Shown here in pieces: positions 17,967 through 55,842 of a stretch of DNA of 64,000 bases. Made by a program: the position numbers and the translations under genes. Every line of letters begins with the position of its first letter. Positions within the stretch are counted from its first letter, which is position 1. The notes under the pieces were generated by a model that saw nothing but the letters and a program-made list of their open reading frames with translations, was not told where the DNA came from and ran no database searches. The DNA is from Anaerolineales bacterium (GTDB taxonomy: Bacteria; Chloroflexota; Anaerolineae; Anaerolineales; DRKV01): the NCBI GenBank assembly GCA_024763355.1, contig JANTFR010000001.1:6259-70258 (forward strand), in the 5' to 3' direction.

Positions 17967-19106
17967 TCACAGCCTCCTTTCGGCCAGAATCTCCCGGTAC
18001 ACATCCGCCAGTTCTTCCACCACCACGTCCAGGGCGTAAGATGTCTCCACCCGCCGGCGGGCGGCCTTGCCCAGGCGGGCGCGCAAGGCATCATCACCCA
18101 GCAGGTGCAACAAGGCAGCCTCCAAAGCGGGTCGGTCATCGGGCGGAATCAGCCAACCAGTCTCCCCATGGGAGACGACCTCCGGCGCAGCGCCCACCCT
18201 CGTGAGCAGAACGGCCAGACCGGTGCTCATCGCCTCCAGCATAGCCCCGGAAATGCCCTCGGCAATGGAAGGCAGCACGAACAAATCAGCCGCCGCCAGA
18301 AATTCATCCACATTTTGGACGTACCCGTGGAAGAAAACTTCCTCCCCCGCGGCGGATTGCAGGGCTTCTTGCTGGTCCCCCTCCCCCAAAATGTGGAGGC
18401 TCGCTTTGGGGTGAGCGCGGCGCACCCGAGGCCAGGCATCCACCAGAAAGTTCACCCGCTTCTCGGCGGCCAGCCGCCCGCTGAAGACGACCATCAGAGC
18501 ATCCGCGGGGACCCCCAAATGGCGGCGTAACGCCGCCCGCGCCTCCGGCGGACGCGGGTAAAAACGGGCGATGTTCACGCCATTGGGGATGTGCACCAGA
18601 CGCTTCGGAGGCACACCCGCCGACTGCAATTCGTCGGCAATCTCCCGGCTGATGCAGATGAAGCGCTCCCCCTGTGAAGCAATGGCGGCCATGCGCCGCG
18701 CTCCCAGGAATTTTTGCTGCAAGCGCTGCACGTCGCCGATAGAACCACCGCGATGGGGCGTGAAGAGCAACGGCCAGCCCCACAAACGCTTTGCCAGCAA
18801 GCCGATAGTAGCCGCAGAGAACAATTCATGGGCGTGCAAGATGTCGGGCTGGATGCGTCCCAAAACGCGCAGGGCGTGGAAGGTGTAACTCAGCGAAGCG
18901 GTAGCCTTTGGCCCGAAAATGGGGACGCGGTGTACGGATACGCCATCCATGTGCTCGAAGGCGGGCAGTCCGGCGTGCCGCCGCGTGATGATGTGGACAT
19001 CGAAGCCCAGGCGTACCAGCCGGGATGCCTGCGCGTGCGTCTGGCGCTCCATGCCCCCCAGGAGGGGCAGATAGCGCTGAATGGTAACGGCTAGGGTTGG
19101 TTGCAT
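17967..19106 (-). CDS. Family-4 (GT-B) glycosyltransferase
   Basis: C-terminal EGISGAMLEAMSTGLAVLLTRVGAAPEVV (the E-x7-E region of GT4). Start taken at MQPTLAVTIQRY (ATG 19106); residues upstream in the track ORF are translated micro-repeats. Confidence 0.75.
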   Translation of the reverse strand: MQPTLAVTIQRYLPLLGGMERQTHAQASRLVRLGFDVHIITRRHAGLPAFEHMDGVSVHRVPIFGPKATASLSYTFHALRVLGRIQPDILHAHELFSAATIGLLAKRLWGWPLLFTPHRGGSIGDVQRLQQKFLGARRMAAIASQGERFICISREIADELQSAGVPPKRLVHIPNGVNIARFYPRPPEARAALRRHLGVPADALMVVFSGRLAAEKRVNFLVDAWPRVRRAHPKASLHILGEGDQQEALQSAAGEEVFFHGYVQNVDEFLAAADLFVLPSIAEGISGAMLEAMSTGLAVLLTRVGAAPEVVSHGETGWLIPPDDRPALEAALLHLLGDDALRARLGKAARRRVETSYALDVVVEELADVYREILAERRL

Positions 19107-19300
19107 TGGTTCATCGGTTGCATTGGTTGCATTGGTTGCGTTGGTTGCATTGGTTGCATTGGTCGGATTGGTCGGATTGGTCAGGTAGTCGCCTGGTCGG
19201 GTAGTCTGTCGTCCGCCGTCCGTGGTCCGTGGTCTGTCGTCCGTCGCACGCCGCACGCCGCACGGTCTACCGTCCACCGTCTACGGTCCGTTGTCCGTCG
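19096..19300 (-). repeat. Micro-repeat array filling the whole spacer from the helicase-like stop to the GT4 start (about 14 x 7-mer, then about 10 x 9-mer)
   Basis: Minus-strand reading: GACGACGGACAACGGACC GTAGACGGTGGACGGTAGACC GTGCGGC GTGCGGC GTGCGAC GGACGACAGACCACGGACCACGG... CTACCCGACC..CTACCTGACC AATCCGACC x2 AATGCAACC x5-6, with the ATG inside the last units. Heptamer phase is constant 19206-19296; 9-mer phase 19098-19187. Confidence 0.9.
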
Positions 19301-21436
19301 TCAGTTTCCTGTCTCCATCAAAATGCGCGCCAGGGCGCGGAAGAGAGGGCCGCGCTGTTCGTAGCCCTGTTCGTTGAGTTCGCTGATGCCCAGGTAGATG
19401 CCTTTGCGGCAGCGGCGTACCAGCCCCAGCGCCAGACGCGCCAGGGTCTCGCGGTTGGTGTCGGCTTCGTCGAAATCCGTCCACGGGCGGCCAAATTCCC
19501 ACCGGCGGTTGAGGATGTAGGGATGGGTGAGAGGTTGGGCGATGCGGGTGAACCACTGCATGCTGCCGATGTCCAGCCAGAATTGGTAGTCCACGGCGCG
19601 GTTTTGCATCAGGAAGGTGTACGCCGGGGAGAGGAAGACGGCATCCGCCTCCGGCGACTGCCAGCGGCCCAGGTATTGGGCGGCAATCACGCCGTCCTCC
19701 ACCATGCGGAGGTATTCCTTTCCCACCGGCACGCCTTCGGCTTCCAGCACATCCCCCACCGCCCAGCGGAATTTGCGCACAGATTCCACCAGCATGGCCG
19801 CGGTTTGGGCGGCGTCGTAATCGCTGTGGAAGCCGTACCCCGGCTGGGAGAGCACCTCCCCGAACAGGCGGCGAATGAAGTGGTCGAGGGGCTGCGGCGC
19901 GCCGTCCTGATAAACTACCAGCCATTGGCGCAGGTTTTCGTAGGCCATCCCCAGACGGTAGGTAATCCGTTCGCGGGCGGCTTCCTCCAGGTTCTCGAAA
20001 GGCGTCAGGCGGGGACCTTCCGGGCCGAGGCGGTAGACGATGTCAGTCAGGAGGCGGGCGCGCACCAGGTCCATCGCCTCGATGGACTGCATGAGAGCGG
20101 CGCTGAAGTCGAAGGCGGCGGGATAGATGCCCCAATCGGGGTGCGCCAGGGCAGCCAGGGTCAGGAGGGAGCGGGTGGCGGGTTCTTCCCGCAGGGCGCG
20201 GGAGGGGCGGTGAGAGCGCGTCGGGAGGCCGGCATCTTCCAGGCGCGTCGTCAGGGCAAAGCGCAGCGAATCGATCAGGAAGGGGGCCAGGACGACAATC
20301 TCCCCGGGGGGGACTCCATCATCCACCAGGGCGGCGATTTGCTCCGTGACCCAGTCGAGCATCTGGGGGTAGTAGCGCAAATCGGGGGGGTAGGCAAGGT
20401 AACGGGAGACGCTCCCCCTCCGAATGGGGGGAGGCGGTTCTTTGGGGTCTGCATCCCCCTCCGAGGGGGGGCGGAGGCGCACCCAATGGGCGAGATGTTC
20501 CCCCAAATCGAGCAATTCACCGGGGGTAACGTGCGATTCCGAAAAGCGCACCGTTTCCCCGCACAGTTCCGCCAGGGGGAGCATACTTTGGGGGTCGGCA
20601 CCCAGGAAACGGCGGTATCCGGCTTCTTCGTCGAAAATCAGGAGGGCGCTCTCGAAATCGGGCAGCCATTCGGAGAGCAGGTCGGCCACGAGAGGCGGGT
20701 TTTCTTCCAGGTTGTCGGCAATCAGGTGGCGGTAGGTGTCCTGAAGGTACTCGCGGCACAGGGGCGTATCCCACAGGTGGCGGCGAAAGACCTCCAGTTG
20801 GAGGGAGAAGTCGAGCAGGTTGTGCTCCAGGCAAAAGCGGCGGAAGTCGTCTATGCAGGTTTGCGTCTCGTCGAAGATGTGGGCGTGACCGCTTTCCACG
20901 GGCCAGGAGGCTTTGAGGCGCCGGGAGACCTCGGCGAGGGGATAGGCGTTGAAGGCGGCTTTGTTGAGGTTATCGACCAACTGGCTATAGAGGCGATTGC
21001 GGCTGATGGTCAGGCCGGTGAACATCCCCTCCTGCAGACGCGGACGGACGAGATGCGCCATGTAGTACTGGGCGGTCTCCAGGGTGAGGAAGACGGGGGG
21101 CAGGTCGGGGCGGGCGAAGCCGGCCTCCTCGGCCACCAGGGGCCAGAAGAGTTCCGTCATGCGGCGCGCCAGGCCGCCGATGGTGAGCAAATCGGGGGCA
21201 GTGCCGTTGATGACGCCGGGGGTTTGCAGCGCCAGGGTGTACGGCTCTCCCAGGGTGCGTTGCGGAACGAGGATGAGAATTTGTCCGCCGGGGATGCCCT
21301 GCGCCATGAGGTGCAGCATCCGCTCCACGCCGACGGTGGTTTTTCCGCTCCCCGCCGGCCCGCGCAGGAAGACGGCGCCGCGAGGCGGGGCTTCGATAAG
21401 GGTGCGCTGGGAGGGGGTGAGGGGGAAAGTGGGCAA
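19301..21436 (-). CDS. UvrD/Rep-like superfamily-1 helicase-related P-loop protein
   Basis: LTPSQRTLIEAPPRGAVFLRGPAGSGKTTVGVERMLHL (Walker A) and ILILVPQRT. The start is uncertain: no ATG/GTG after the repeat array, so I chose the in-frame TTG at 21436. The longer track ORF (to 21838) runs through the 8-mer array and overlaps the acd gene start. Confidence 0.6.
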   Translation of the reverse strand: MPTFPLTPSQRTLIEAPPRGAVFLRGPAGSGKTTVGVERMLHLMAQGIPGGQILILVPQRTLGEPYTLALQTPGVINGTAPDLLTIGGLARRMTELFWPLVAEEAGFARPDLPPVFLTLETAQYYMAHLVRPRLQEGMFTGLTISRNRLYSQLVDNLNKAAFNAYPLAEVSRRLKASWPVESGHAHIFDETQTCIDDFRRFCLEHNLLDFSLQLEVFRRHLWDTPLCREYLQDTYRHLIADNLEENPPLVADLLSEWLPDFESALLIFDEEAGYRRFLGADPQSMLPLAELCGETVRFSESHVTPGELLDLGEHLAHWVRLRPPSEGDADPKEPPPPIRRGSVSRYLAYPPDLRYYPQMLDWVTEQIAALVDDGVPPGEIVVLAPFLIDSLRFALTTRLEDAGLPTRSHRPSRALREEPATRSLLTLAALAHPDWGIYPAAFDFSAALMQSIEAMDLVRARLLTDIVYRLGPEGPRLTPFENLEEAARERITYRLGMAYENLRQWLVVYQDGAPQPLDHFIRRLFGEVLSQPGYGFHSDYDAAQTAAMLVESVRKFRWAVGDVLEAEGVPVGKEYLRMVEDGVIAAQYLGRWQSPEADAVFLSPAYTFLMQNRAVDYQFWLDIGSMQWFTRIAQPLTHPYILNRRWEFGRPWTDFDEADTNRETLARLALGLVRRCRKGIYLGISELNEQGYEQRGPLFRALARILMETGN

Positions 21437-21470: not shown

Positions 21471-21499
21471 TGACGGGCGTAGACGGAGGACGACAGACC

Positions 21500-21587
21500 G
21501 ATGAACCGATGAACCGATGAACCGATGAACCGATGAACCGATGAACCGATGAACCGATGAACCGATGAACCGATGAACCGATGAACC
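21500..21587 (+). repeat. Perfect tandem array, 11 x GATGAACC
   Basis: 88 nt with no mismatch, preceded by GATGACGGGCGTAGACGGAGGACGACAGACC. Lies in the divergent spacer upstream of the acd promoter. Confidence 0.95.
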
Positions 21588-21645
21588 AATTGTAACCCAA
21601 ACCAAAGGGGGAAGAATGACACTTTCCACAGGCAGGCCTCGCGGC

Positions 21646-21651
21646 TATAAT
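21646..21651 (+). promoter_or_regulatory. Candidate -10 box (TATAAT) for the acyl-CoA dehydrogenase gene
   Basis: GGCTATAATGG 38 nt upstream of ATG 21690, followed by SD GAAGGAGAA. The -35 is poor (TTCCAC). Confidence 0.45.
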
Positions 21652-22920: not shown

Positions 22921-22976
22921 AGTATCCGCCCGACCGGTCGGTAGGGACACCTACCCGCAGAGCGGATACTTTTTTA
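22921..22976 (+). terminator. Rho-independent terminator after acd (branched stem + T6)
   Basis: AGTATCCGC ... GCGGATACT TTTTTT, with internal palindromes CCGACCGGTCGG and GGTAGG-gaca-CCTACC. Confidence 0.7.
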
Positions 22977-23104
22977 GTCCTGTGTGGAAACGGTACCACG
23001 TCTCTATGTGAAGAAATCATGGACGAAAGAACGCAGATTTCCGTAGATTCCTTTTTCCGTCCATCTGTGTCCATCCGTGTCAAGGAGTTCAAGGAGGTGC
23101 CATT

Positions 23105-35255: not shown

Positions 35256-35292
35256 ATACTCTGTTTTATAGAGTATCTGTTTTGTAGAGTAT
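35256..35292. promoter_or_regulatory. Candidate operator: tandem 16-mers CTGTTTTATAGAGTAT / CTGTTTTGTAGAGTAT plus inverted half-site ATACTCT
   Basis: Two adjacent 16-bp units (15/16 identical) at 35261-35292. ATACTCT (35256-62) is the reverse complement of AGAGTAT in both units. AT-rich spacer about 120 nt upstream of the kinase ATG (35139, minus strand). Confidence 0.4.
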
Positions 35293-37606: not shown

Positions 37607-37611
37607 CGTGC

Positions 37612-37617
37612 TATAAT
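37612..37617 (+). promoter_or_regulatory. -10 box TATAAT 9 nt upstream of the pcrA ATG (near-leaderless transcript predicted)
   Basis: GCTATAATCACCGCGCTATG; no SD is possible in the 9-nt gap. Confidence 0.5.
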
Positions 37618-37626
37618 CACCGCGCT

Positions 37627-39783
37627 ATGGACATCCTGGCAGGTCTCAACATTCAACAGCAGCAGGCCGTCACCGCCGGGCTGGGCCCCGTCATCGTGCT
37701 TGCCGGCCCCGGTTCCGGCAAAACGCGCGTCCTCACCCACCGCATCGCCTACCTGATTGGCTATCTGGGGGCGCGCCCCTACAACATCCTGGCGGTGACC
37801 TTCACCAACAAGGCTGCCCGAGAGATGAACCGCCGGGTAGAAGACCTGCTCGGCGGACAGACGCGCGGCCTGACGGTGGGTACGTTTCACGCCTTCTGCG
37901 CCCGTCTGCTGCGCCGCGAGGCCGAACACTTGCCCGTGGACGCCAATTACGTCATCTTCGACGCCGACGACCAGATTGGACTCGTCAAACAGGCCCTCAA
38001 AGACCTCAATCTGGATGACAAACGCTACCGTCCCTACGGGGTGCACGCCGCCATCTCCAACGCCAAGAACGAATTGCGCGGTCCGGACGAATATCCGGTG
38101 CAAAATTACCGCGATGAAGTCGTCCGCCGCGTCTACGAGCAGTACCAGAAATTGCTCCTTGCCAGCAACGCCGTGGATTTCGACGACCTGCTGCTTTACA
38201 CCGCCCGTCTGCTGGAAATGCACCCCGCGGTGCGCGAGCGCTACGCCCGCCGCTTCGAGCACGTCCTGGTGGACGAATTTCAGGACACCAACATGGCGCA
38301 ATACAGCCTCCTGCGCCATCTGGCCTCCTTCCACGGCAACATTTTCGTGGTGGGTGACGCCGACCAGTCCATTTACCGCTGGCGGGGCGCAGATTACCGC
38401 AACGTGCTGCGCTTCGAGAAGGACTACCCCGACGCCCAGGTAATTTTGCTGGAACAAAACTACCGTTCCACGCAGACCATTTTAGACGTAGCGATGGCGG
38501 TCATTGACCAGAATCCGCACCGCACCCCCAAGAAACTCTTTACCGACCGCGGCAGCGGCCTTCCCGTGACCATCAAGGAAATCGCCACCGACCGCCAGGA
38601 AGCCCAGTACGTCATCGAGACGATTGCCTCCCTGATTGCCCGCCACAAGGCACAGCCCGGCGATTTCGCCGTCATGTACCGCACCAACGCCCAATCCCGT
38701 ATTTTGGAGGAAACCTTCCTGCAGGCCGGCCTGCCCTACAAAATCGTGGGGGCGCAGCGTTTCTACGGACGGCGGGAAATCAAGGACATGATTGCCTACC
38801 TGCGGCTGGTGCACAATCCGCACGATGAAGTCAGCCTGATGCGCGTCATCAACGTGCCTCGCCGCGGCATCGGGGCAAAAACCGTCGCCGCTTTGCGGAC
38901 TGCGGCGCAGAAGGCCGGCCTCTCGATGGGCGCGCTGCTTTTAGAACTGGCGCAGAACCCCGAATCGCCCCACGCGGCGGCCTTCAGCGGACGCGCCCTG
39001 GGACTGTTGCGCGCTTTTGGCGATGCTCTCGCCTCCTGGCGCGCCGCCGGCCTCTCCCCCCGCCCCCTGCTGGACCGCATTCTGGACGACATTGACTACC
39101 GTCCCTACATTGACGACGGCTCCGACGAAGGCTACAGCCGCTGGGAGAACGTGATGGAATTGCGCCGCCTGGCCGCCGAGCAGGACGAAGCCGGACTGGA
39201 AGCCTTTCTGGAGCAAATTGCCCTCGTCGCCGACCAGGATACCCTCGACGAAAAGAGCAACGTCCCTACCCTGCTGACCTTCCACGCCGCCAAAGGGTTG
39301 GAGTTTCCGATTGTCTTTCTCGTCGGCCTCAACGACGGCATCCTGCCTCACCGTCGTTCCTTCGACGACCCCGAAGCCATGATGGAGGAACGCCGTCTGT
39401 TCTACGTGGGAATCACCCGCGCCAAAGACCGCCTTTATCTGCTCTATTCGGAGGAGCGCTACACTTACGGATATCCCGATTACGCCGAACCATCCCGTTT
39501 TTTGGCGGATATCCCCGAAGATTTGCTCACCGATGGGAAAAAGAGAACCTCCCGCGGCCCGCGGCGGGCGCGGCAAACCCGTTGGGAATCCTCCTCCAAA
39601 AAATCCCGCCCTCCCTCCAAGCCCCGCTACGCTGCCGGTCAGCGGGTGCGGCATCCCAAATTCGGGGAGGGTCTCATCCTCAGCACCCGTCTCGACGGCG
39701 AAGACGAAATCCTGGATGTCTTCTTCGAGAACGTCGGCATGAAGCGCGTCATCGCCTCCCTGGCGCGTCTCGAAAGCGTCTAA
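37627..39783 (+). CDS. pcrA: ATP-dependent DNA helicase PcrA/UvrD
   Basis: LNIQQQQAVTAGLGPVIVLAGPGSGKTRVLTHRIAYL, VDEFQDTN, YRSTQTIL, VTFHAAKGLEFPIVFL, LFYVGITRAK. Start at the internal MDILAGL. Confidence 0.9.
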   Translation: MDILAGLNIQQQQAVTAGLGPVIVLAGPGSGKTRVLTHRIAYLIGYLGARPYNILAVTFTNKAAREMNRRVEDLLGGQTRGLTVGTFHAFCARLLRREAEHLPVDANYVIFDADDQIGLVKQALKDLNLDDKRYRPYGVHAAISNAKNELRGPDEYPVQNYRDEVVRRVYEQYQKLLLASNAVDFDDLLLYTARLLEMHPAVRERYARRFEHVLVDEFQDTNMAQYSLLRHLASFHGNIFVVGDADQSIYRWRGADYRNVLRFEKDYPDAQVILLEQNYRSTQTILDVAMAVIDQNPHRTPKKLFTDRGSGLPVTIKEIATDRQEAQYVIETIASLIARHKAQPGDFAVMYRTNAQSRILEETFLQAGLPYKIVGAQRFYGRREIKDMIAYLRLVHNPHDEVSLMRVINVPRRGIGAKTVAALRTAAQKAGLSMGALLLELAQNPESPHAAAFSGRALGLLRAFGDALASWRAAGLSPRPLLDRILDDIDYRPYIDDGSDEGYSRWENVMELRRLAAEQDEAGLEAFLEQIALVADQDTLDEKSNVPTLLTFHAAKGLEFPIVFLVGLNDGILPHRRSFDDPEAMMEERRLFYVGITRAKDRLYLLYSEERYTYGYPDYAEPSRFLADIPEDLLTDGKKRTSRGPRRARQTRWESSSKKSRPPSKPRYAAGQRVRHPKFGEGLILSTRLDGEDEILDVFFENVGMKRVIASLARLESV

Positions 39784-39798
39784 ACTCCTGCATTCACC

Positions 39799-40296
39799 AT
39801 GTCTCCCGTCCTGCCTCCCAACGCCCTGGAAGTCATCAGCCACAGCGCCGAACAGACCCGCCGCGTAGGTGTGCGCCTGGGAACTTTGCTGCAAGCCGGC
39901 GACCTGATTTGTCTCCACGGCGACCTGGGCACGGGCAAGACGACCTTCGTGCAAGGCGTGGCCCGCGGCTGGGGCGCATACGACCCGGTGACCAGCCCGA
40001 CTTTTGTGCTCATCAACGTCTATCGCCGCACCGATGGCGGACAATTGTTCCACGTGGATGCCTACCGTCTCAGCGGCCCGCAAGAAGCCTGGGACCTCGA
40101 CCTGGATGCCTATCTGGAGCGCGGCCCCCTGGTGGTGGAGTGGGCGGAGCGCATTGACGAGGCCCTCCCCGCCGAGCGTCTAGACGTGGCCTTCACCTGG
40201 CGGGACGACACGCAACGCGACTTGCTTCTCACCGCCCGCGGCTCGCATTACGAAACCCTGCTCACCGAACTCCGTCGCCGCACCTTTGGGAGGTAG
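39799..40296 (+). CDS. tsaE: tRNA t6A37 biosynthesis ATPase TsaE
   Basis: LHGDLGTGKTTFVQGVARG and SPTFVLINVY, characteristic of TsaE/YjeE. Confidence 0.85.
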   Translation: MSPVLPPNALEVISHSAEQTRRVGVRLGTLLQAGDLICLHGDLGTGKTTFVQGVARGWGAYDPVTSPTFVLINVYRRTDGGQLFHVDAYRLSGPQEAWDLDLDAYLERGPLVVEWAERIDEALPAERLDVAFTWRDDTQRDLLLTARGSHYETLLTELRRRTFGR

Positions 40297-40416
40297 ACGA
40301 CAGACCACAGACCACGGACGACAGACGACAGACCGCGGACGACGGGCGACAAACCACGCGACCACCCGACCACCCGACTACCTGACCACGCGACTACCCG
40401 ACCACCCGACTACCTC
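40297..40416 (+). repeat. Micro-repeat array filling the entire tsaE-tsaB spacer (9 x 7-mer GACSACR, then 7 x 8-mer CNGACYAC)
   Basis: GACGACA GACCACA GACCACG GACGACA GACGACA GACCGCG GACGACG GGCGACA AACCACG, then CGACCAC CCGACCAC CCGACTAC CTGACCAC GCGACTAC CCGACCAC CCGACTAC CTCCC-ATG. Confidence 0.9.
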
Positions 40417-41087: not shown

Positions 41088-41109
41088 TGGACAATAGGCG
41101 GTGGACGGT

Positions 41110-41181
41110 GAACCAATGCAACCGATACAACCGATGTAACCAATGCAACCAATGCAACCAATCCAACCGATGCAACCACCT
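41110..41181 (+). repeat. 8 x 9-mer array (C/G/T)AACC(A/G)AT(G/A/C) in the tsaB-rimI spacer
   Basis: GAACCAATG CAACCGATA CAACCGATG TAACCAATG CAACCAATG CAACCAATC CAACCGATG CAACCACCT, preceded by GGCGGTGGACGGT. Contains several in-frame ATGs. Confidence 0.9.
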
Positions 41182-42358: not shown

Positions 42359-42384
42359 GGAGACGCCGGGCGACAATGCCCTGT

Positions 42385-42452
42385 GAACCAATGAACCAAT
42401 GCAACTAATGCAACCGATGCAACTAATGAACTAATGAACTAACCAACCAATG
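42385..42452 (+). repeat. 8-/9-mer array (G/C)AAC(C/T)AATG running into the dehydrogenase start codon
   Basis: GAACCAATG AACCAATG CAACTAATG CAACCGATG CAACTAATG AACTAATG AACTAACC AACCAATG-AACCAA. The ATG at 42450 is part of the last unit. Confidence 0.9.
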
Positions 42453-43763
42453 AACCAAACTACGCTCCTCTCCAAAATCCAATCCAAAGACCTGCGCATC
42501 GTCGTGCTCGGCATGGGATACGTTGGCCTGCCGCTAGCGATGGTCTTTGCCGAGGCCGGTTTCGACGTCACCGGCGTTGACCCCATCGAAGAAAAAGTCG
42601 CCCGCCTCAATCGCGGCGAGAGTTACGTCAAGGATGTCCCCTCGGAGCAGGTCGCCCGCTGGGTGCAGGCCGGCACTTTTCGCGCCACCGCCGATTTCTC
42701 CGTCATCCGGGAGGCTGACGCGGTCAGCATCTGCGTCCCTACCCCGTTGCGGAAGACCGGCGACCCCGATTTGTCATTCATCATCTCGGCCACGGACGAA
42801 CTGGCGCGCTACGTCCACCCCGGCATGGTAGTCGTCCTGGAATCCACCACCTACCCCGGCACCACCCGCGAGATTCTGCTCCCCAAACTGGAAGCATCTG
42901 CCAATTTGAAAGTGGGCGAAAACTTCTTCCTGGCCTTCTCCCCGGAGCGCGTCGACCCCGGACGCGAGGACTGGACGACGGTCAACACCCCCAAAGTGAT
43001 GGGCGGCATCACCCCCGCCTGCACCGAAGTGGCCTCCGCCTGGTACGGACAGGCCATCCAGACCGTCGTGCCGGTCACTTCCGCCGAGGTAGCCGAAATG
43101 GCAAAACTGCTCGAAAACACCTTCCGGATGATAAACATCGGGCTGGTCAACGAACTGGCGCTGATGTGCGACCGTCTGGGCGTGGACGTGTGGGAAGTCA
43201 TTGAAGCCGCGGCCACCAAACCCTTCGGCTTCATGAAGTTCACCCCAGGCCCCGGCCTGGGCGGGCACTGCATCCCCATTGACCCGCTCTACCTCTCGTG
43301 GAAACTGCGCTCCCTCAACTACACCGCCAAATTCATCGAACTGGCATCCGAAATCAACACCGGCATGCCGCGCTACGTGGTCGGCAAGGTGCAGGACGCC
43401 CTCAACGAACATCGCAAACCGCTCAAAGGCAGCCGCGTGCTCGTTTTGGGGGCGGCTTACAAGCCCGATATTGACGACCTGCGCGAATCTCCCGCCCTGG
43501 ATGTGATTGGTCTCCTGGCGCAGAAGGGCGCCGAGGTCTCTTACCACGACCCCTACATCCCCCACTTCCGGCACGACGGCTTCACCATGCGCTCGGTGGA
43601 CGACCTGATGGAGGCGGTACACGCCGCCGACTGCGTGGTGATTGTCACCAACCACAGCGACTACGATTACGCCGCCATTCTGGAAAACGCCCGCCTCATC
43701 GTGGATACCCGCAACGCCCTCGGCCCCGCCGGGCGCAACAACCCCAAAGTAATCCGTCTCTGA
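42450..43763 (+). CDS. Nucleotide-sugar dehydrogenase (UDP-GlcNAc/ManNAc 6-dehydrogenase, WbpA/WecC-like)
   Basis: IVVLGMGYVGLPLAMVFAEAG, ICVPTPL, SPERVDPG, GLGGHCIPIDP. Confidence 0.85.
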   Translation: MNQTTLLSKIQSKDLRIVVLGMGYVGLPLAMVFAEAGFDVTGVDPIEEKVARLNRGESYVKDVPSEQVARWVQAGTFRATADFSVIREADAVSICVPTPLRKTGDPDLSFIISATDELARYVHPGMVVVLESTTYPGTTREILLPKLEASANLKVGENFFLAFSPERVDPGREDWTTVNTPKVMGGITPACTEVASAWYGQAIQTVVPVTSAEVAEMAKLLENTFRMINIGLVNELALMCDRLGVDVWEVIEAAATKPFGFMKFTPGPGLGGHCIPIDPLYLSWKLRSLNYTAKFIELASEINTGMPRYVVGKVQDALNEHRKPLKGSRVLVLGAAYKPDIDDLRESPALDVIGLLAQKGAEVSYHDPYIPHFRHDGFTMRSVDDLMEAVHAADCVVIVTNHSDYDYAAILENARLIVDTRNALGPAGRNNPKVIRL

Positions 43764-43767
43764 CCCC

Positions 43768-43872
43768 CCGTCACCCACCGCCCACCGCCCACCGTCAGCC
43801 CTTCAGCCGTCAGGCGTCAGGCATCAGCTACCGTCCACCGTCTACCATCAACCCTTCACCATTCAGCCACTC
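43768..43872 (+). repeat. About 15 x heptamer array (CCCACCG / GTCAGGC / ACCGTCY / ACCMTTC families) filling the dehydrogenase-epimerase spacer
   Basis: CCCGTCA CCCACCG CCCACCG CCCACCG TCAGCCC TTCAGCC GTCAGGC GTCAGGC ATCAGCT ACCGTCC ACCGTCT ACCATCA ACCCTTC ACCATTC AGCCACT. The complement of 43764-43790 fits a G3+N4 x4 quadruplex pattern. Confidence 0.9.
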
Positions 43873-43885
43873 TCCGGAGTTTTCC

Positions 43886-44863
43886 ATGTCCCGATATCTT
43901 CTCACTGGCGCCGCTGGCTTCATCGCCGCCCGCACGGGCGAAATGCTGCTCGAAAACGGCCACACCGTCTTTGGCGTGGACAACATCAACGACGCCTACG
44001 ACGTCCGTATGAAGCAGCACCGTCTGGAAAAACTGCAAACCTACCCCAATTTCACCTTCCGGCGGATGGATATCGCCGACAAGGAAGATGTCCTCTCCCT
44101 GGCGGAGCAGGCCCCCTTCGATGCGGTCATCAACCTGGCCGCCCGCGCCGGGGTGCGCGCCAGCGTCCAAAATCCCTGGGTGTACGTGGATACCAACCTG
44201 ACCGGCACCCTCAACCTGCTGGAGCTCAGCCAGCGCGCCGGCATCCCTAAATTCATCCTGGCCTCCACTTCCAGCATCTACGGGCAGGACGCCCCCCTCC
44301 CCACCCCGGAAACCGCCGACAGCAGCCGCCCTCTCCAGCCCTACGCGGCCAGCAAGAAGGCCGCCGAAGCCATGAGCCACGCCTATCACTACCTGTACGG
44401 CATTGACGTCAGCGTGGTGCGTTTCTTCACCGTCTACGGCCCGGCGGGACGCCCCGATATGTCCGTCTTCCGCTTCATCCGCTGGATTAGCGAGGGCGAA
44501 CCCCTGCACCTCAACGGGGACGGCAGCCAGTCCCGCGGCTTCACCTACGTGGACGACATCGCCCGCGGCGTGGTTCTCGCCCTCCAGCCGGTGGGCTACG
44601 AGATTTTCAACCTCGGCGGGCACGAAAACCTCACCATCAAAGAACTCATCGAGCGCATCGAGGCCCTCACGGGGCGCAAAGCGAACATCGTGCAGCACCC
44701 CTTTCCCCAGGCGGATATGAAAGCCAACCTGGCCGACATCAGCAAGGCGGGAAAGATGCTGGGCTGGGAGCCGGGCGTCAGCCTGGATGAGGGCCTGCGC
44801 CGCACGGTGGCATGGTACAACGAAAACCGCGCCTGGGCGAAGGAACTCTCGCTCAATGTTTGA
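43886..44863 (+). CDS. NAD-dependent sugar-nucleotide epimerase/dehydratase (UDP-glucuronate 4-epimerase-like)
   Basis: LLTGAAGFIAARTGEMLL (GxxGxxG) and YAASKKAAE (YxxxK). Confidence 0.85.
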   Translation: MSRYLLTGAAGFIAARTGEMLLENGHTVFGVDNINDAYDVRMKQHRLEKLQTYPNFTFRRMDIADKEDVLSLAEQAPFDAVINLAARAGVRASVQNPWVYVDTNLTGTLNLLELSQRAGIPKFILASTSSIYGQDAPLPTPETADSSRPLQPYAASKKAAEAMSHAYHYLYGIDVSVVRFFTVYGPAGRPDMSVFRFIRWISEGEPLHLNGDGSQSRGFTYVDDIARGVVLALQPVGYEIFNLGGHENLTIKELIERIEALTGRKANIVQHPFPQADMKANLADISKAGKMLGWEPGVSLDEGLRRTVAWYNENRAWAKELSLNV

Positions 44864-44946
44864 CCACGGATGACGGACCACGGACGACGGACGACTGACC
44901 GCGGACGACGGATGCCCCGCACGTCGCGCTCCGCACCCCGCACCCA
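44862..44946 (+). repeat. Heptamer array (GACSACG x7, then CCGCAC-type units) filling the epimerase-flippase spacer
   Basis: GACCACG GATGACG GACCACG GACGACG GACGACT GACCGCG GACGACG GATGCCC CGCACGT CGCGCTC CGCACCC CGCACCC-ATAC-GTG. Confidence 0.9.
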
Positions 44947-48220: not shown

Positions 48221-48250
48221 CCACGAATGGTCACGAATGAGCACGAATAG
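48221..48250 (-). repeat. 3 x decamer (minus strand CATTCGTGNN), same TTCGTG family as 37557-37606, facing the LOG gene
   Basis: Plus strand CCACGAATGG TCACGAATGA GCACGAATAG; minus strand reads CTATTCGTGC TCATTCGTGA CCATTCGTGG just upstream of the SD. Confidence 0.85.
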
Positions 48251-48257
48251 CATCAAC

Positions 48258-48313
48258 GCACTTGGCACTTGGCACTTGACACGTGATACATGATACGTGA
48301 TACGTGACACGTG
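48258..48313 (+). repeat. 8 x heptamer array (GCACTTG x3, then AYACRTG x5) upstream of the TPR gene promoter
   Basis: GCACTTG GCACTTG GCACTTG ACACGTG ATACATG ATACGTG ATACGTG ACACGTG in constant phase. Confidence 0.9.
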
Positions 48314-48331
48314 ATTATACCCCTCGGCAGG

Positions 48332-48337
48332 TATAAT
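48332..48337 (+). promoter_or_regulatory. -10 box TATAAT exactly 6 nt upstream of the TPR gene ATG (leaderless mRNA predicted)
   Basis: CAGGTATAATCTCATCATG. Confidence 0.5.
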
Positions 48338-48343
48338 CTCATC

Positions 48344-49732
48344 ATGTCTCGCCGCCGCGCCCTCCTTTTCGTTTTCCTGATTTTCCTCCTCGGAGACTTT
48401 GTCTGGTGGCAGGCCGGCGCGCAAAACCGCGCCGCCCGCCGCGCCCTGGCACAGCGTGGCGAAGGCTATTCCCTGAGCGAACTGACCACCCTGGCACAGA
48501 CCGTCCCCGCGCCTGCCCTGTGGGAGGTGGCCGCCTGGCGAGCGGAGGAACGGGAACAATTCTCCATCGCGCGGGCCTGTCTGCTGCGCGCCCGCGCCGA
48601 GGGGATGCTCTCCTCCCAGGGGTACGGGCTGCTGGGCGACCTCACCGCCGAAACGGGCAACCTGGAAACCGCAGTCTCCTTCTGGGAGCAGGCTGTGGAA
48701 CAGGACGCCCCCCAGGCGGACATCTGGCGGCGCAAACTGGCGCAAGTGGCCGAAAGCCGCGGGGATTGGGAGGCCGCCCTGGAGCACTACCGCATTCTCT
48801 CGCAGCACGCCCCCGCAGATGCAGAACTTCTCTGCAAGGTAGCCACGCTGCTTTCCGTCCTGCACCCCGCCGAAGCCCCCGCATATCTGGAACTCGCTGC
48901 CGCCTCGTCTTCTCCCTGCGCCGCGTTGGCCGCATCCCTGCGCGATGCCCTCGTGCAGGGTAGTTTGCAGGACGACCCCGCTTACATCGCCGTGCTGACG
49001 GGACGAGCATTGGGGGCGCATGGGGAATGGGCGCTGGCCGCCGAAGCCTTCCGCCGCGCCGTGGAGCGCAATCCCGATTACGCCGAAGGTTGGGCTTTCT
49101 GGGGACAGGCCCTCGAAACCCTCGGCCTGGACGGAAGTCGCGCCCTGGAAACCGCGCTGCGTCTCGACCCCGCTTCGCTCACCGCGGCCAGTTTGAACGC
49201 CCTCTACTGGCGCAACCGCGGGCAACCCGAAAAAGCGCTGGTCTATTTCTACCGCGCCGCCCGCAGCGAGCCGGAAAACCCGCTGTGGGAGATGGAAATC
49301 GGGGCGACTCTGGCGCAGATGGGGAATATCTCCAATGCGCTGGAACACTACCGCAAAGCGACCTCCCTGGCGTCCAACGACCCCGCTCCCTGGCGCGCCC
49401 TGGCGGAGTTTTGCCTGCAATACGGTCTGGAAATCAAGGAAACCGCCCTGCCCGCCGCCCGCCAAAGCGTTCTGCTGGCCCCTCAGGAGGCCGCCTCCCC
49501 GGAAATCCTGGGACGCGTGTACCTGCGCCTGGGCGACCTGACCAGCGCCCGCCGCCTCGCCCGCCGCGCCCTCGCCCTGGATTCCGGTTACACCCCGGCC
49601 TACCTGGATTTAGGGCTGATTGCATCCCTGCAAGGGGACGACGCCCTTGCCCGCCGCATGTACCAGACCGTTATCTCCCTCGCTCCGGATTCCCCCTGGG
49701 CTGCCCAGGCCCGCCGCCTGCTGGGGCCATAG
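48344..49732 (+). CDS. Tetratricopeptide-repeat protein with N-terminal TM/signal anchor
   Basis: N-terminus RRRALLFVFLIFLLGDFVWW, then repeated A/L/Y-rich 34-aa units (e.g. GWAFWGQALETLGLDGSRALETALRLDP). Confidence 0.7.
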   Translation: MSRRRALLFVFLIFLLGDFVWWQAGAQNRAARRALAQRGEGYSLSELTTLAQTVPAPALWEVAAWRAEEREQFSIARACLLRARAEGMLSSQGYGLLGDLTAETGNLETAVSFWEQAVEQDAPQADIWRRKLAQVAESRGDWEAALEHYRILSQHAPADAELLCKVATLLSVLHPAEAPAYLELAAASSSPCAALAASLRDALVQGSLQDDPAYIAVLTGRALGAHGEWALAAEAFRRAVERNPDYAEGWAFWGQALETLGLDGSRALETALRLDPASLTAASLNALYWRNRGQPEKALVYFYRAARSEPENPLWEMEIGATLAQMGNISNALEHYRKATSLASNDPAPWRALAEFCLQYGLEIKETALPAARQSVLLAPQEAASPEILGRVYLRLGDLTSARRLARRALALDSGYTPAYLDLGLIASLQGDDALARRMYQTVISLAPDSPWAAQARRLLGP

Positions 49733-51823: not shown

Positions 51824-52195
51824 ATGTCCTTGCGCGTCGGCACCGACCTGGTGGAAATCGCCCGTCTGGAGCAAATCATCGCCCGGCACGGGGAGCGCTT
51901 TCTGCGGCGCATCTACACCCCGCAGGAACTGGAAGACTGCGCCGGCAAACTGCCCTCCCTGGCGGCGCGTTGGGCGGCCAAAGAAGCGGTCGCCAAAGCC
52001 CTGGGAACAGGCATCGGGCCGGTGGCCTTCCGCGAAATCGAAGTGCGCCGCGGCCCACAGCGGGAGCCCACCCTGCACCTGCACGGCAACGCCGCCGCTC
52101 TCTCCGCCGACCTCGGCCTGACGGAGTGGGCCGTCAGTTTGAGCCACACCGACCGCTACGCCGTGGCGATGGTCGCCGCGGTGGGAGGACGGTAG
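51824..52195 (+). CDS. acpS: Holo-[acyl-carrier-protein] synthase
   Basis: VGTDLVEIARLEQ..., AARWAAKEAVAKALGTG, SLSHTDRYAVAMV. Confidence 0.85.
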   Translation: MSLRVGTDLVEIARLEQIIARHGERFLRRIYTPQELEDCAGKLPSLAARWAAKEAVAKALGTGIGPVAFREIEVRRGPQREPTLHLHGNAAALSADLGLTEWAVSLSHTDRYAVAMVAAVGGR

Positions 52196-52204
52196 ACGGT
52201 GGAT

Positions 52205-52239
52205 AGTGCGGAGTGCGGAGTGCGGGGTGCGACGTGCGG
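52205..52239 (+). repeat. 5 x heptamer array (A/G/C)GTGCG(G/A)
   Basis: AGTGCGG AGTGCGG AGTGCGG GGTGCGA CGTGCGG, preceded by GGACGGTAGACGGTGGAT, which starts inside the acpS 3' end and spans its stop codon. Confidence 0.9.
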
Positions 52240-52270
52240 TAGACTACCTGACCACCCGCCCCTGACTAAT

Positions 52271-52450
52271 CCGACCAATTCGACCAATCCGACCACTTCG
52301 ACCAATCCGACCACTTCGACCACTCCGACCACTCCGACCACTCTGACCAATCAGACCACTTCGACCACTTCGACCACTCCGACCAATCAGACCACTTCGA
52401 CCACCCCGACCAATTCGACCAATCAGACCACTCCGACCAATCAGACCAAC
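52271..52450 (+). repeat. 20 x 9-mer array, consensus YNGACCAMT, ending 6 nt before the HerA-like ATG
   Basis: CCGACCAAT TCGACCAAT CCGACCACT TCGACCAAT CCGACCACT TCGACCACT CCGACCACT CCGACCACT CTGACCAAT CAGACCACT TCGACCACT TCGACCACT CCGACCAAT CAGACCACT TCGACCACC CCGACCAAT TCGACCAAT CAGACCACT CCGACCAAT CAGACCAAC. Confidence 0.95.
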
Positions 52451-52456
52451 CGACCC

Positions 52457-54145: not shown

Positions 54146-54251
54146 TGCGCTCAGAACCTGTAAGCGCAGGCAGGCGCGCTTACCCCGTCGCCGGTTTCTC
54201 CCTCGTCAGGTCGGAGAATTCCGAATCTTTTCTCACTTTCAAGTAGTTTGT

Positions 54252-54257
54252 TACAAT
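54252..54257 (+). promoter_or_regulatory. -10 box TACAAT exactly 6 nt upstream of the methyltransferase ATG (leaderless mRNA predicted)
   Basis: GTTTGTTACAATCAAGGCATG; no SD. Confidence 0.45.
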
Positions 54258-54263
54258 CAAGGC

Positions 54264-55136
54264 ATGAACGAACCAATCATCCGCCCGCTGCTTGGTGACT
54301 GCCGCGAGGTGCTCCGTACCCTGGACGACGAATCGATTGACCTGATTGTTACTTCGCCGCCCTACGCCGACCAGCGCAAAAACACCTACGGGGGCATCCA
54401 TCCCGACGATTATGTGGCCTGGTTCCTGCCGATTGCGGCGGAATTGCAACGCGTCCTCAAACCCACGGGAACTTTCATCCTGAACATCAAAGAACGCGTT
54501 GTCAAGGGGGAACGCCACACCTACGTCCTCGAGTTGATACTTGCCATGCGCCGCCAGGGGTGGCTCTGGACGGAAGAATTCATCTGGCACAAAAAGAATT
54601 CCTACCCCGGCAAGTGGCCTAATCGTTTTCGGGATGCCTGGGAACGCTTGCTGCAATTCAACAAACAACGGCAGTTCCACATGTACCAGGAAGCCGTGAT
54701 GGTACCCATGGGGGACTGGGCCAGGAAACGCCTCAAGAATCTGAGCGATACGGACAAAATTCGGGACGAATCACGGGCCGGCAGCGGCTTTGGGAAACGG
54801 GTTGCCAACTGGGTGGGACGCGAGAAGGTGTATCCCACCAACGTCCTGCACATGGCTACCGAGACACGCAACCGCAACCACAGCGCGGCTTTCCCCGAAG
54901 CGCTTCCGGCATGGTTTATCAAACTGTTTACTCAGGAGGGCGACTGGGTGCTGGACCCCTTCATGGGTTCCGGCACAACTCTGCGGGCGGCGTACCGCCT
55001 GCGCCGCAACGCGATTGGGATTGACATCATGGAAACCTATTACGAGCAGGTCAAGGCCAGTTTGAAAGACCTGCAAACCCCACAACTCTCCCTTTTCGAG
55101 GCACAGGAAGCCTATGAACCCCCTCGACCTGAATGA
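54264..55136 (+). CDS. Beta-class DNA methyltransferase (N4-cytosine or N6-adenine; SPPY suggests m4C)
   Basis: Motif IV DLIVTSPPYADQR near the N-terminus and motif I VLDPFMGSGTTLRAA near the C-terminus (IV-before-I order). Confidence 0.85.
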   Translation: MNEPIIRPLLGDCREVLRTLDDESIDLIVTSPPYADQRKNTYGGIHPDDYVAWFLPIAAELQRVLKPTGTFILNIKERVVKGERHTYVLELILAMRRQGWLWTEEFIWHKKNSYPGKWPNRFRDAWERLLQFNKQRQFHMYQEAVMVPMGDWARKRLKNLSDTDKIRDESRAGSGFGKRVANWVGREKVYPTNVLHMATETRNRNHSAAFPEALPAWFIKLFTQEGDWVLDPFMGSGTTLRAAYRLRRNAIGIDIMETYYEQVKASLKDLQTPQLSLFEAQEAYEPPRPE

Positions 55137-55842
55137 TGTGCGCGATTTCGTGGCCGAAAACATTGGAGCCTTCCACAACCGCCGCCTGGAAAGACTCCAA
55201 TCCCTGCAACTCCGGCAAATTCTGAAGCGTAAGAACCCGTACCTGTTCCGCGCCAAGAACATCGATACCTCCCAAGCACTGGTAAGGGAGTTGCTGGACG
55301 CGCATCTCTCCTCGCAAGAGGAAACCATCTTCGGCCAATTTCTGGAAGAATTAGCCGTTTTCGTATGTCAGCGCGTTTACGGTGGACGAAAATCCACCGC
55401 CGAAGGGATTGACCTGGAATTCGAGAAGGACGGCGTGTACTACATCGTGGCCGTCAAGTCCGGCCCCAACTGGGGCAACAGCAGCCAGATTGCCCGCATG
55501 AAAAACAACTTCAAACAGGCCCGCCGGCGGCTGCGTCAAAACCGGCAAATGGGCAATGTCGTGGCCGTCAACGGGTGCTGTTACGGAAAAGACAACAAGC
55601 CGGACAAAGGCGATTACCTGAAATTGTGCGGGCAGCGCTTTTGGGAGTTCATTTCCGGCAACGACCGTCTCTACCTCGAAATCATCGAGCCGTTGGGGCA
55701 CCAGGCGGAAGAGCGCAACGCGGCTTTTCGGCGGGAATACGCCCGCATCGTCAACCTGTTCACAATGGACTTCGGAGCCGAATTCTGCACCGAAGGTCTG
55801 ATTGACTGGGAAAAACTGGTGCGTTTCAATTCTGCCCTCTGA
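55114..55842 (+). CDS. Putative type II restriction endonuclease (TdeIII/PmeII-like by recollection)
   Basis: 23-nt overlap with the methyltransferase gene. LKRKNPYLFRAKN, GIDLEFEKDGVYYIVAVKSGPNWGNSSQ (candidate D..ExK nuclease core). Family name is from memory only. Confidence 0.55.
   Translation: MNPLDLNDVRDFVAENIGAFHNRRLERLQSLQLRQILKRKNPYLFRAKNIDTSQALVRELLDAHLSSQEETIFGQFLEELAVFVCQRVYGGRKSTAEGIDLEFEKDGVYYIVAVKSGPNWGNSSQIARMKNNFKQARRRLRQNRQMGNVVAVNGCCYGKDNKPDKGDYLKLCGQRFWEFISGNDRLYLEIIEPLGHQAEERNAAFRREYARIVNLFTMDFGAEFCTEGLIDWEKLVRFNSAL

Follow-up and report, generated by a model that had tools for sequence, protein, structure and literature searches.

What fills the spacer between a UvrD-like helicase gene and a GT4 glycosyltransferase gene in an Anaerolineales genome with tandem repeats and nothing else, and why does a second array, between an ACPS gene and a gene for a HerA-type ATPase, show the same order of repeat modules? 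Both arrays lie in a 64,000-nt stretch of a metagenome-assembled genome (MAG) of an Anaerolineales bacterium (Chloroflexota), which was analysed at its full length and is referred to below as the window. A first inspection of the DNA letters (hereafter the sequence-only reading) had taken the pair for a functional leader or promoter cassette, or for the product of templated copying. Intergenic heptamer repeats have been on record in bacteria since 2007, and the reason for their existence and the constraints on them are still debated. We consider it probable, with room left for doubt, that the arrays are composite long simple-sequence repeats (LSSRs) generated by slippage, homogenised by recombination and filtered by selection for polarity at the mRNA level.

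Composite arrays between stop and start codons

On the minus strand, all spacer bases from the helicase stop to the GT4 start (19303-19097) belonged to a tandem array, and Tandem Repeats Finder (TRF) reported periods of 7, 7, 7 and 9 for this array at 19.1-19.3 kb. The encoded GT4 protein had the Pfam domains Glyco_transf_4 and Glycos_transf_1, and its ATG (19106-19104) sat within the last F units. Written in the sense of the downstream gene, as are all module strings below, the array was composed as follows:

19290..19303 (minus strand), first two heptamers, TGACGAC GGACAAC, with the helicase stop TGA (19303-19301) inside
19264..19289 (minus strand), module A ("anchor"), GGACCGT AGACGGT GGACGGT AGACC, 3.7 copies of an RGACSGT heptamer
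19243..19263 (minus strand), module B, GTGCGGC GTGCGGC GTGCGAC
19208..19242 (minus strand), module C, five RGACSRC heptamers, GGACGAC AGACCAC GGACCAC GGACGGC GGACGAC
19183..19206 (minus strand), module D ("linker"), three 8-mers, GACTACCC GACCAGGC GACTACCT
19097..19182 (minus strand), modules E and F, E being two copies of GACCAATCC and F consisting of AATGCAACC-type 9-mers and one 8-mer

The F units (19089-19157, minus strand) also placed five out-of-frame ATGs ahead of the GT4 start. A 22-codon MQP-repeat upstream open reading frame (uORF; MQPMQPTQPMQPMQPMNQCNQP) was opened by F-unit ATGs, and its TAG stop overlapped GT4 codons 4-5.

The second array lay on the plus strand, and the gene behind it encodes a HerA/DUF87 ATPase (Pfam):

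52187..52205 (plus strand), module A, GGACGGT AGACGGT GGATA, holding the ACPS stop TAG (52193-52195) within GGTAGAC
52206..52240 (plus strand), module B, five GTGCGRN heptamers
52241..52263 (plus strand), module D, A GACTACCT GACCACCC GCCCCT
52264..52456 (plus strand), module E, about 20 NNCGACCAM 9-mers ending at the HerA ATG (52457)

As the sequence-only reading had claimed, the loci at 19.1-19.3 kb and 52.2-52.5 kb both carried composite tandem arrays with the same module order, and both arrays spanned the distance from stop to start, with the refinement that the upstream stop codons sat inside the first repeat units. The 17-nt anchor that was thought to link them did match at 16 of 17 positions, but it represented 2.4 copies of the heptamer RGACGGT rather than a unique site. 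The linker was likewise an array, of three 8-mers. Identity of architecture held for the order only: the module strings were A B C D E F for GT4 and A B D E for HerA, the 52-kb array having neither the GGACGAC block nor the AATGCAACC block. Nor were these the only two arrays of the kind, since about 14 were present in the window. Anchor-like matches with at most three mismatches numbered 7 in the window, where 0.15 were expected from shuffles, and CTACCTGACC with at most one mismatch gave 10 matches against 2.1 expected.

Module order and strand polarity

Modules in sense orientation kept to the order A<B<C<D<E<F without exception in six arrays of the window and three arrays of relatives. The rough joint probability of the shared order in five further arrays was about 0.003, and the non-random order proposed earlier was borne out to that extent. 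A single fixed orientation relative to the downstream gene, which had also been proposed, was contradicted at three places: the anchor was inverted at 43821-43850 before a plus-strand gene, GTGCGG was inverted at 44915-44945, and the array in the divergent spacer, at 21475-21590, preceded the ACAD promoter and ran antisense to the helicase gene.

The invariant of the arrays was polarity, not module identity. GC skew was higher in the first half than in the last half of all co-directional array spacers (9/9; sign test, p=0.004), and the mean G content in the last 40 nt before the start was 0.117 in array spacers versus 0.248 in array-free spacers. The modules that are G-rich on the sense strand (A, B and C) adjoined the upstream stop, and the C/A-rich modules (D, E and F) adjoined the start. 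Where A or B occurred near a start it was inverted, hence C-rich on the sense strand, and the polarity rule was kept; the inverted anchor CTACCGTCCACCGTCTACC, for example, was C-rich on the sense strand 36 nt ahead of the epimerase ATG. Unrelated units obeyed the rule as well, as in the asparaginase/endonuclease III spacer, where GAATGCG-type units preceded those of the CACTTGC type.

Genes abutted by arrays (starts at 19106, 40419, 42450, 46310 and 52457, among others) had no Shine-Dalgarno (SD)-like motif in any of eight cases, versus 22 of the 46 other genes (Fisher p=0.016). Array-free orthologous spacers were likewise C-rich and without SD; arrays therefore appear to expand within SD-less leaders that are under the same compositional constraint. 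As a separate observation on translation starts in this genome, the PcrA/UvrD, TPR and methylase genes had TATAAT/TACAAT boxes only about 8-12 nt ahead of their ATGs (37610-37629, 48330-48346 and 54250-54266), again without SD, and such close -10 boxes suggest leaderless or near-leaderless mRNAs in the host.

Order and polarity also bear on the possibility that the arrays are independent slippage debris, the likeness of the two being a low-complexity coincidence. The units are all short and compositionally alike, with GAC/ACC cores, and low-complexity matches are hard to judge statistically, both of which would suit this explanation. It is opposed by the 7 anchor-like matches against 0.15 expected, by the consistent order across composites (rough probability 0.003), by polarity in 9/9 spacers and by the paralogous identity in a relative, L125, described below. 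Independent debris was already disfavoured, and we find it scarcely credible.

Turnover in relatives and copying between arrays

The orthologous spacers were compared in relatives of the source organism, the nearest for the GT4 locus being L125 (GCA_054037075.1), with about 92% DNA identity to the window:

Helicase-GT4 spacer, window, 194 nt (crude gene map): A, B, five C heptamers, D, E and about eight F units
Helicase-GT4 spacer, L125, 285 nt: without A and B; 16 C heptamers, D and about 17 F units
Helicase-GT4 spacer, L126/L127 (helicase 81% identical), 44 nt: array-free
ACPS-HerA spacer, window, 261 nt: A, B, D and about 20 E units
ACPS-HerA spacer, L123, 104 nt: AGACCAC heptamers in place of GTGCGG, and four 9-mers versus 20
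ACPS-HerA spacer, L124, 58 nt: unrelated CATCACC-type units
ACPS-HerA junction, L249 (HerA 87% identical): no spacer, the genes overlapping by ATGA

The D 8-mers were largely kept in the L125 ortholog, with a few substitutions. The LOG/TPR and asparaginase/endonuclease III spacers showed a like turnover among relatives, and such arrays were not found in the syntenic regions of L126 and L249 (about 22 kb each). Because the spacers of relatives differ in modules or copy number, or have no array, the arrays are young, lineage-specific and fast-evolving. This result contradicts the conserved functional cassette that the sequence-only reading had proposed: A and GTGCGG were gone at about 92% DNA identity, copy numbers shifted 2-3 fold, and relatives at 81-87% protein identity were array-free. 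In relatives that have no array, the downstream genes are functional all the same.

The divergent ACAD/helicase spacer of L125 had another complete composite (A B C D E F) of about 400 nt, where the ACAD side of the window has only ACCGATGA x11. The D-E-F part of this ACAD-side composite was identical, over about 80 nt of non-periodic sequence, to the GT4-side array of the same genome, and the GT4-side ortholog in the window departed from that stretch at several positions. The two L125 composites form an inverted pair around the helicase gene. The identical D-E-F stretch shows that composites were duplicated or converted between loci. Templated copying, one of the mechanisms suggested before, stands in the form of ordinary recombination between arrays, as in the L125 pair, but not as a dedicated mechanism, for which no candidate enzyme gene was linked to the arrays in the window.

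The graded series at the ACPS-HerA junction (overlap, 58 nt, 104 nt and 261 nt) amounts to a dated natural experiment. It shows that arrays arise at gene junctions, that they are copied from one locus to another, and that a strand-specific polarity from G to C sorts them.

Promoter, leader, coding and mobile functions

No sigma-70-like site (-35/-10 with 16-18 nt spacing) was present within 19097-19303 or 52187-52456, and no terminator-like site was present inside the GT4 or HerA array. The sole promoter match near the arrays tested, at 21623-21651 (TTTCCA-17-TATAAT), lay downstream of the 21.5-kb array and was followed by the SD GAAGGAGA; it represents the ACAD promoter. Folding of the sense RNAs of the GT4 and HerA arrays was no better than that of shuffles (z-scores +0.81 and -1.25), an Rfam scan gave no match at gathering thresholds, and a tRNA scan was empty. 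The proposed promoter cassette was thus not found, neither array having a sigma-70-like site, and the proposed functional leader fared no better, with no significant fold, no Rfam match and no conservation in orthologs. The arrays are neither promoters nor folded RNA leaders, nor are they conserved cassettes of binding sites.

A leader could also act by sequence rather than by fold, the units being tandem mRNA or DNA sites for S1, a cold-shock protein or a CsrA-like regulator, with copy number tuning translation. The arrays do reach up to or into the start codon, are sense-oriented and stand in place of a Shine-Dalgarno sequence, one unit vocabulary recurs at many loci, and a similar case has been argued for TAACTGA heptamers in Beggiatoaceae (PMC4679880). 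A regulator of this kind is nevertheless difficult to reconcile with modules that are gained and lost and with 2-3 fold copy changes at about 92% identity, with close relatives that are array-free or have overlapping genes, and with units that vary among loci and orthologs (for example, the CATCACC-type units in L124). Moreover, the downstream genes have no common function, and the 21.5-kb array lies upstream of a promoter, outside any leader. We therefore regard a sequence-specific regulatory leader as doubtful.

Slippage of 7- or 8-nt units could instead shift upstream ATGs, uORFs or N-terminal extensions and so switch genes, as in contingency (phase-variation) loci. Surface-polysaccharide genes are indeed flanked by arrays (two GT4, GT2, BcsB, UDP-glucose dehydrogenase, epimerase and flippase), the F-unit ATGs fall in shifting frames, and the GT4 start overlaps the 22-codon repeat uORF. 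Arrays are carried by the housekeeping genes tsaB, rimI, HerA and endonuclease III as well, however, they lie outside promoter spacers and called open reading frames (ORFs), and the sole same-strain comparison gave an identical array (tsaB-rimI). Phase variation is a very improbable role for them. Separately, we considered the arrays as N-terminal extensions, read from GTG starts at 19277 and 52199. This candidate was rejected, the frame being broken by heptamer copy-number differences in orthologs; for HerA, an extension across the array was also rejected, as homologs have only 562-586 aa. The arrays are an annotation hazard all the same, since they yield long spurious ORFs and ambiguous starts, such as the 436-aa GT4 and 648-aa HerA readings.

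The hallmarks of miniature inverted-repeat transposable elements (MITEs) or repetitive extragenic palindromes, namely terminal inverted repeats, target duplications, a fixed length and near-identical full copies, were not observed. Array copies varied in module content and length, and their ends coincided with stop and start codons. A scan of viral contigs for the anchor heptamer array gave a single match, on which phage carriage of the arrays was rejected. These results bear on the idea of a dispersed cassette, in which a MITE-like element or enzyme-driven templated copying would insert an ordered composite at stop-start junctions. Several loci with the same order, the L125 paralogs identical over 80 nt and inverted around the helicase gene, spacers created de novo where genes once overlapped, and the presence of the RGACGGT heptamer in several phyla would all agree with such a mechanism. 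Yet the arrays show neither terminal inverted repeats nor target duplications and have no fixed length, the module subset and copy numbers differ in each copy, ordinary homologous recombination between long identical repeats accounts for the L125 pair, only the single viral-contig match was obtained, and within the window the arrays are not linked to any candidate gene for such an enzyme. A dedicated insertion mechanism is thus very unlikely.

When metagenomes were scanned with two F units, most matches were coding repeats with no relation to the arrays. Two metagenome contigs, L132 (about 280-470) and L230, with GC contents of 0.43-0.51, carried arrays of AACCAATGA / AACTAATGA-type 9-mers from a stop codon to an ATG. 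Both arrays followed genes with similar C-terminal sequences, and the contigs were otherwise unrelated.

The RGACGGT heptamer across phyla

Species-representative genomes were scanned with GGACSGTAGACGGTGGA, which gave at least 120 loci (L003-L122). Among the matches listed, 94/120 carried three or more strict RGACSGT units in tandem. The matches listed came mostly from Saprospiraceae, Lewinellaceae, Chitinophagales, Gemmatimonadota and Chloroflexota MAGs, and also from Thermoanaerobaculia, with a few chance singletons. The arrangement (GGACGGT)n...(ACCGTCC)n within 400 nt occurred at 25 loci among the matches listed, and the reverse order at 0. Some of the inverted heptamer pairs lengthened into longer inverted repeats (GGACGGTTTGCAC...GTGCAAACCGTCC in L114 and L115). 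A first ORF-adjacency test was discarded as confounded by TAG codons within the repeat. Adjacency was counted at loci with a GC content of at most 0.56, for long ORFs and with read-through allowed on both strands; among the matches listed, the ORFs ending beside an array were 43 in G-sense versus 8 in C-sense, and those starting beside an array were 28 in C-sense versus 6 in G-sense. A cross-phylum polarity rule is suggestive on these counts. The GGACGGTGGACGGT heptamer array was not found in the literature searched.

A more far-reaching explanation would be that a lineage-specific active process seeds and copies ordered 7-to-8-to-9-nt composites into stop-start junctions, even splitting genes that once overlapped, under a cross-phylum polarity rule (G-rich after the stop, C-rich before the start), the recurrence of (RGACGGT)n in Bacteroidota, Gemmatimonadota and Chloroflexota reflecting a common recognition factor or horizontal spread and not independent slippage. 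We consider this unlikely.

Probable origin and comparison with known repeats

Under the explanation that we prefer, composite slippage-generated repeats under a polarity filter, the arrays would have arisen recently in one Anaerolineales (Chloroflexota) sublineage. Growth and shrinkage would proceed by slipped-strand mispairing, and diversification by amplification of a unit that had itself mutated. Loci would exchange units by recombination or gene conversion, of which the L125 pair is one demonstrated case. The arrays sit in SD-less operon spacers, from stop to start, where they are presumably co-transcribed with the flanking genes. Two factors would account for the order shared by the GT4 and HerA arrays, the first being common descent or the copying of one composite and the second a polarity filter at the level of the mRNA or of translation start. 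Such a filter would tolerate the G-rich units RGACGGT, GTGCGGN and GGACGAC only beside the upstream stop, and the 40-100 nt before the start would have to be G-poor, C/A-rich and unstructured, being made of GACTACCY, GACCAATCC, AACCAATGC or inverted G-rich units. The polarity probably arises because SD-independent initiation requires a region that is unstructured and poor in G. If it is imposed by initiation on SD-less leaders, the arrays would provide a handle on SD-independent translation start in Chloroflexota.

Several points weigh against this explanation. G content alone does not explain the fine order (A before B, and D before E before F), and that order is known from no more than three or four composites, several of which may not be independent, being linked by copying. 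The several out-of-frame ATGs that F units place ahead of the GT4 and UDP-glucose dehydrogenase starts are surprising in a leader if selection for efficient initiation alone has shaped it. Across phyla, a stricter adjacency test that ignored in-array stops showed no bias, and the orientation signal largely hangs on stop codons inside the first repeat units. Finally, the only same-strain Logan contig spanning an array (tsaB-rimI) was identical to the window; array turnover was seen between species-level relatives and, with this one contig, so far not within a strain.

Heptamers are the commonest class of long simple-sequence repeats, for which polymerase slippage has been proposed (Mrazek, Guo and Shah 2007, as summarised in PMC4679880). 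Like the LSSRs summarised there (units of 5-11 nt), the arrays have head-to-tail units of 7-9 nt with heptamers dominant, are mostly intergenic, are spread sporadically in the phylogeny and are attributed to slippage. The defining features of LSSRs were found here: tandem short units beyond chance, and polymorphism of length and sequence at the same locus (window versus L125, L123, L124, L126 and L249). The present arrays differ in that blocks of different units follow one another in a recurring sequence, their periods rising through 7, 7, 7, 8 and 9 toward the start, and in that they fill whole stop-to-start spacers inside operons.

A parallel in position is given by the GGGAATC heptamers of Xanthomonas and the GGGGAYT heptamers of Nostoc, which follow the same rule of position and strand and vary extensively in length between close relatives (Rehm et al. 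2015, PMC4692102). In both systems the arrays are intergenic, the G-rich strand coincides with the coding strand immediately behind a stop codon and with the non-coding strand immediately ahead of a start codon, some arrays form inverted pairs, and close relatives vary extensively in length and sequence at conserved positions. In contrast to those heptamers, the units here have GG at most (GGACGGT, GTGCGGN and GGACGAC) and are not classical three-tetrad G-quadruplex formers, and the arrays are composites of several units and occur in Anaerolineales. The TAACTGA heptamers of Beggiatoaceae, Cyanobacteria and Bacteroidetes (MacGregor 2015, PMC4679880) are similar in that forward repeats lie a few nt from start codons that are poor in ribosome-binding sites, the downstream genes have no shared function, and one heptamer is common to distant phyla. 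They consist of one unit type in 2-6 copies in most sets, whereas several types in up to 20 copies occur here, and the turnover of the present arrays from one relative to another speaks against their having a fixed regulatory role. No TAACTGA unit and no cyanobacterial short tandemly repeated repetitive heptamer was in the TRF table of the window. The (GATAGRA)n satellites of Chloroflexus aurantiacus (Subirana and Messeguer 2019, PMC6749651) likewise make a Chloroflexota genome rich in intergenic heptamer-derived arrays, but they belong to the class Chloroflexia and have another unit, and no ordered composites were described. Three traits seem to be new: several unit types are stacked in an order that recurs, with periods that increase through 7, 7, 7, 8 and 9; whole spacers have arisen between genes that once overlapped; and (RGACGGT)n recurs across phyla.

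Other arrays and features of the window

With a crude gene map of the window, arrays were present in 13 of about 35 spacers longer than 50 nt and in 0/3 convergent spacers; they totalled about 1.4 kb, or 2.1% of the window. TRF gave periods of 7, 8 and 9 with 3-20 copies. Further arrays included these:

21475..21590 (plus strand), divergent helicase/ACAD spacer, GTAGACGG AGGACGACAG followed by ACCGATGA x11.4; module string (A) C F
40295..40415 (plus strand), tsaE-to-tsaB spacer, RGACSAC heptamers and GACYACSY 8-mers, then ATG; module string C D
41089..41178 (plus strand), tsaB-to-rimI spacer, anchor-like GGACAATAGGCGGTGGACGGTG followed by AACCRATGC 9-mers; module string A F
42384..42458 (plus strand), UDP-glucose dehydrogenase array, AACYRATGM 8/9-mers enclosing the gene start; module string F
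43774..43850 (plus strand), UDP-glucose dehydrogenase-to-epimerase spacer, CCCACCG x3, GTCAGSC units and CTACCGTCCACCGTCTACC (inverted A)
44862..44945 (plus strand), epimerase-to-flippase spacer, RGACSAC heptamers and then CCCCGCA units (inverted GTGCGGG) before the flippase start

The 21.5-kb array includes the octamer array ACCGATGA x11.4 (21497-21587), a 100% match and presumably the youngest expansion in the window. In the divergent LOG/TPR spacer, arrays of related units (CACGAAT; ACGTGAT / ACTTGGC / ACGTGGT) were present at 48222-48315 of the window, at 5710-5763 of L123 and at 2056-2133 of L124; unit variants and copy numbers differed among the three genomes, and the arrays lay directly upstream of the TPR -10 box. 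Short-read assemblies break within arrays, as seen at the contig ends of L251 (window 42384-42437), L013, L037, L047 and L103, and array-rich spacers will for this reason be under-represented or truncated in MAGs.

Three further features were unlike the arrays. A type II restriction-modification insertion (54264-55842), with an N6_N4 DNA methylase and an EcoO109I-family endonuclease, lay downstream of HerA and ahead of a response-regulator/kinase block; it was absent from the 92%-identical L123 and is strain-specific. Between two minus-strand genes, an AT-rich 16-mer direct repeat, TCTGTTTTATAGAGTA x2.1 (35260-35292), may be an operator. A likely intrinsic terminator followed the acyl-CoA dehydrogenase gene (22925-22980), with the hairpin GTATCCGCC...GGCGGATACTTTTTT and a T-run; L125 had kept both stem and T-run, and L126 had a similar hairpin whose T-run was shorter.

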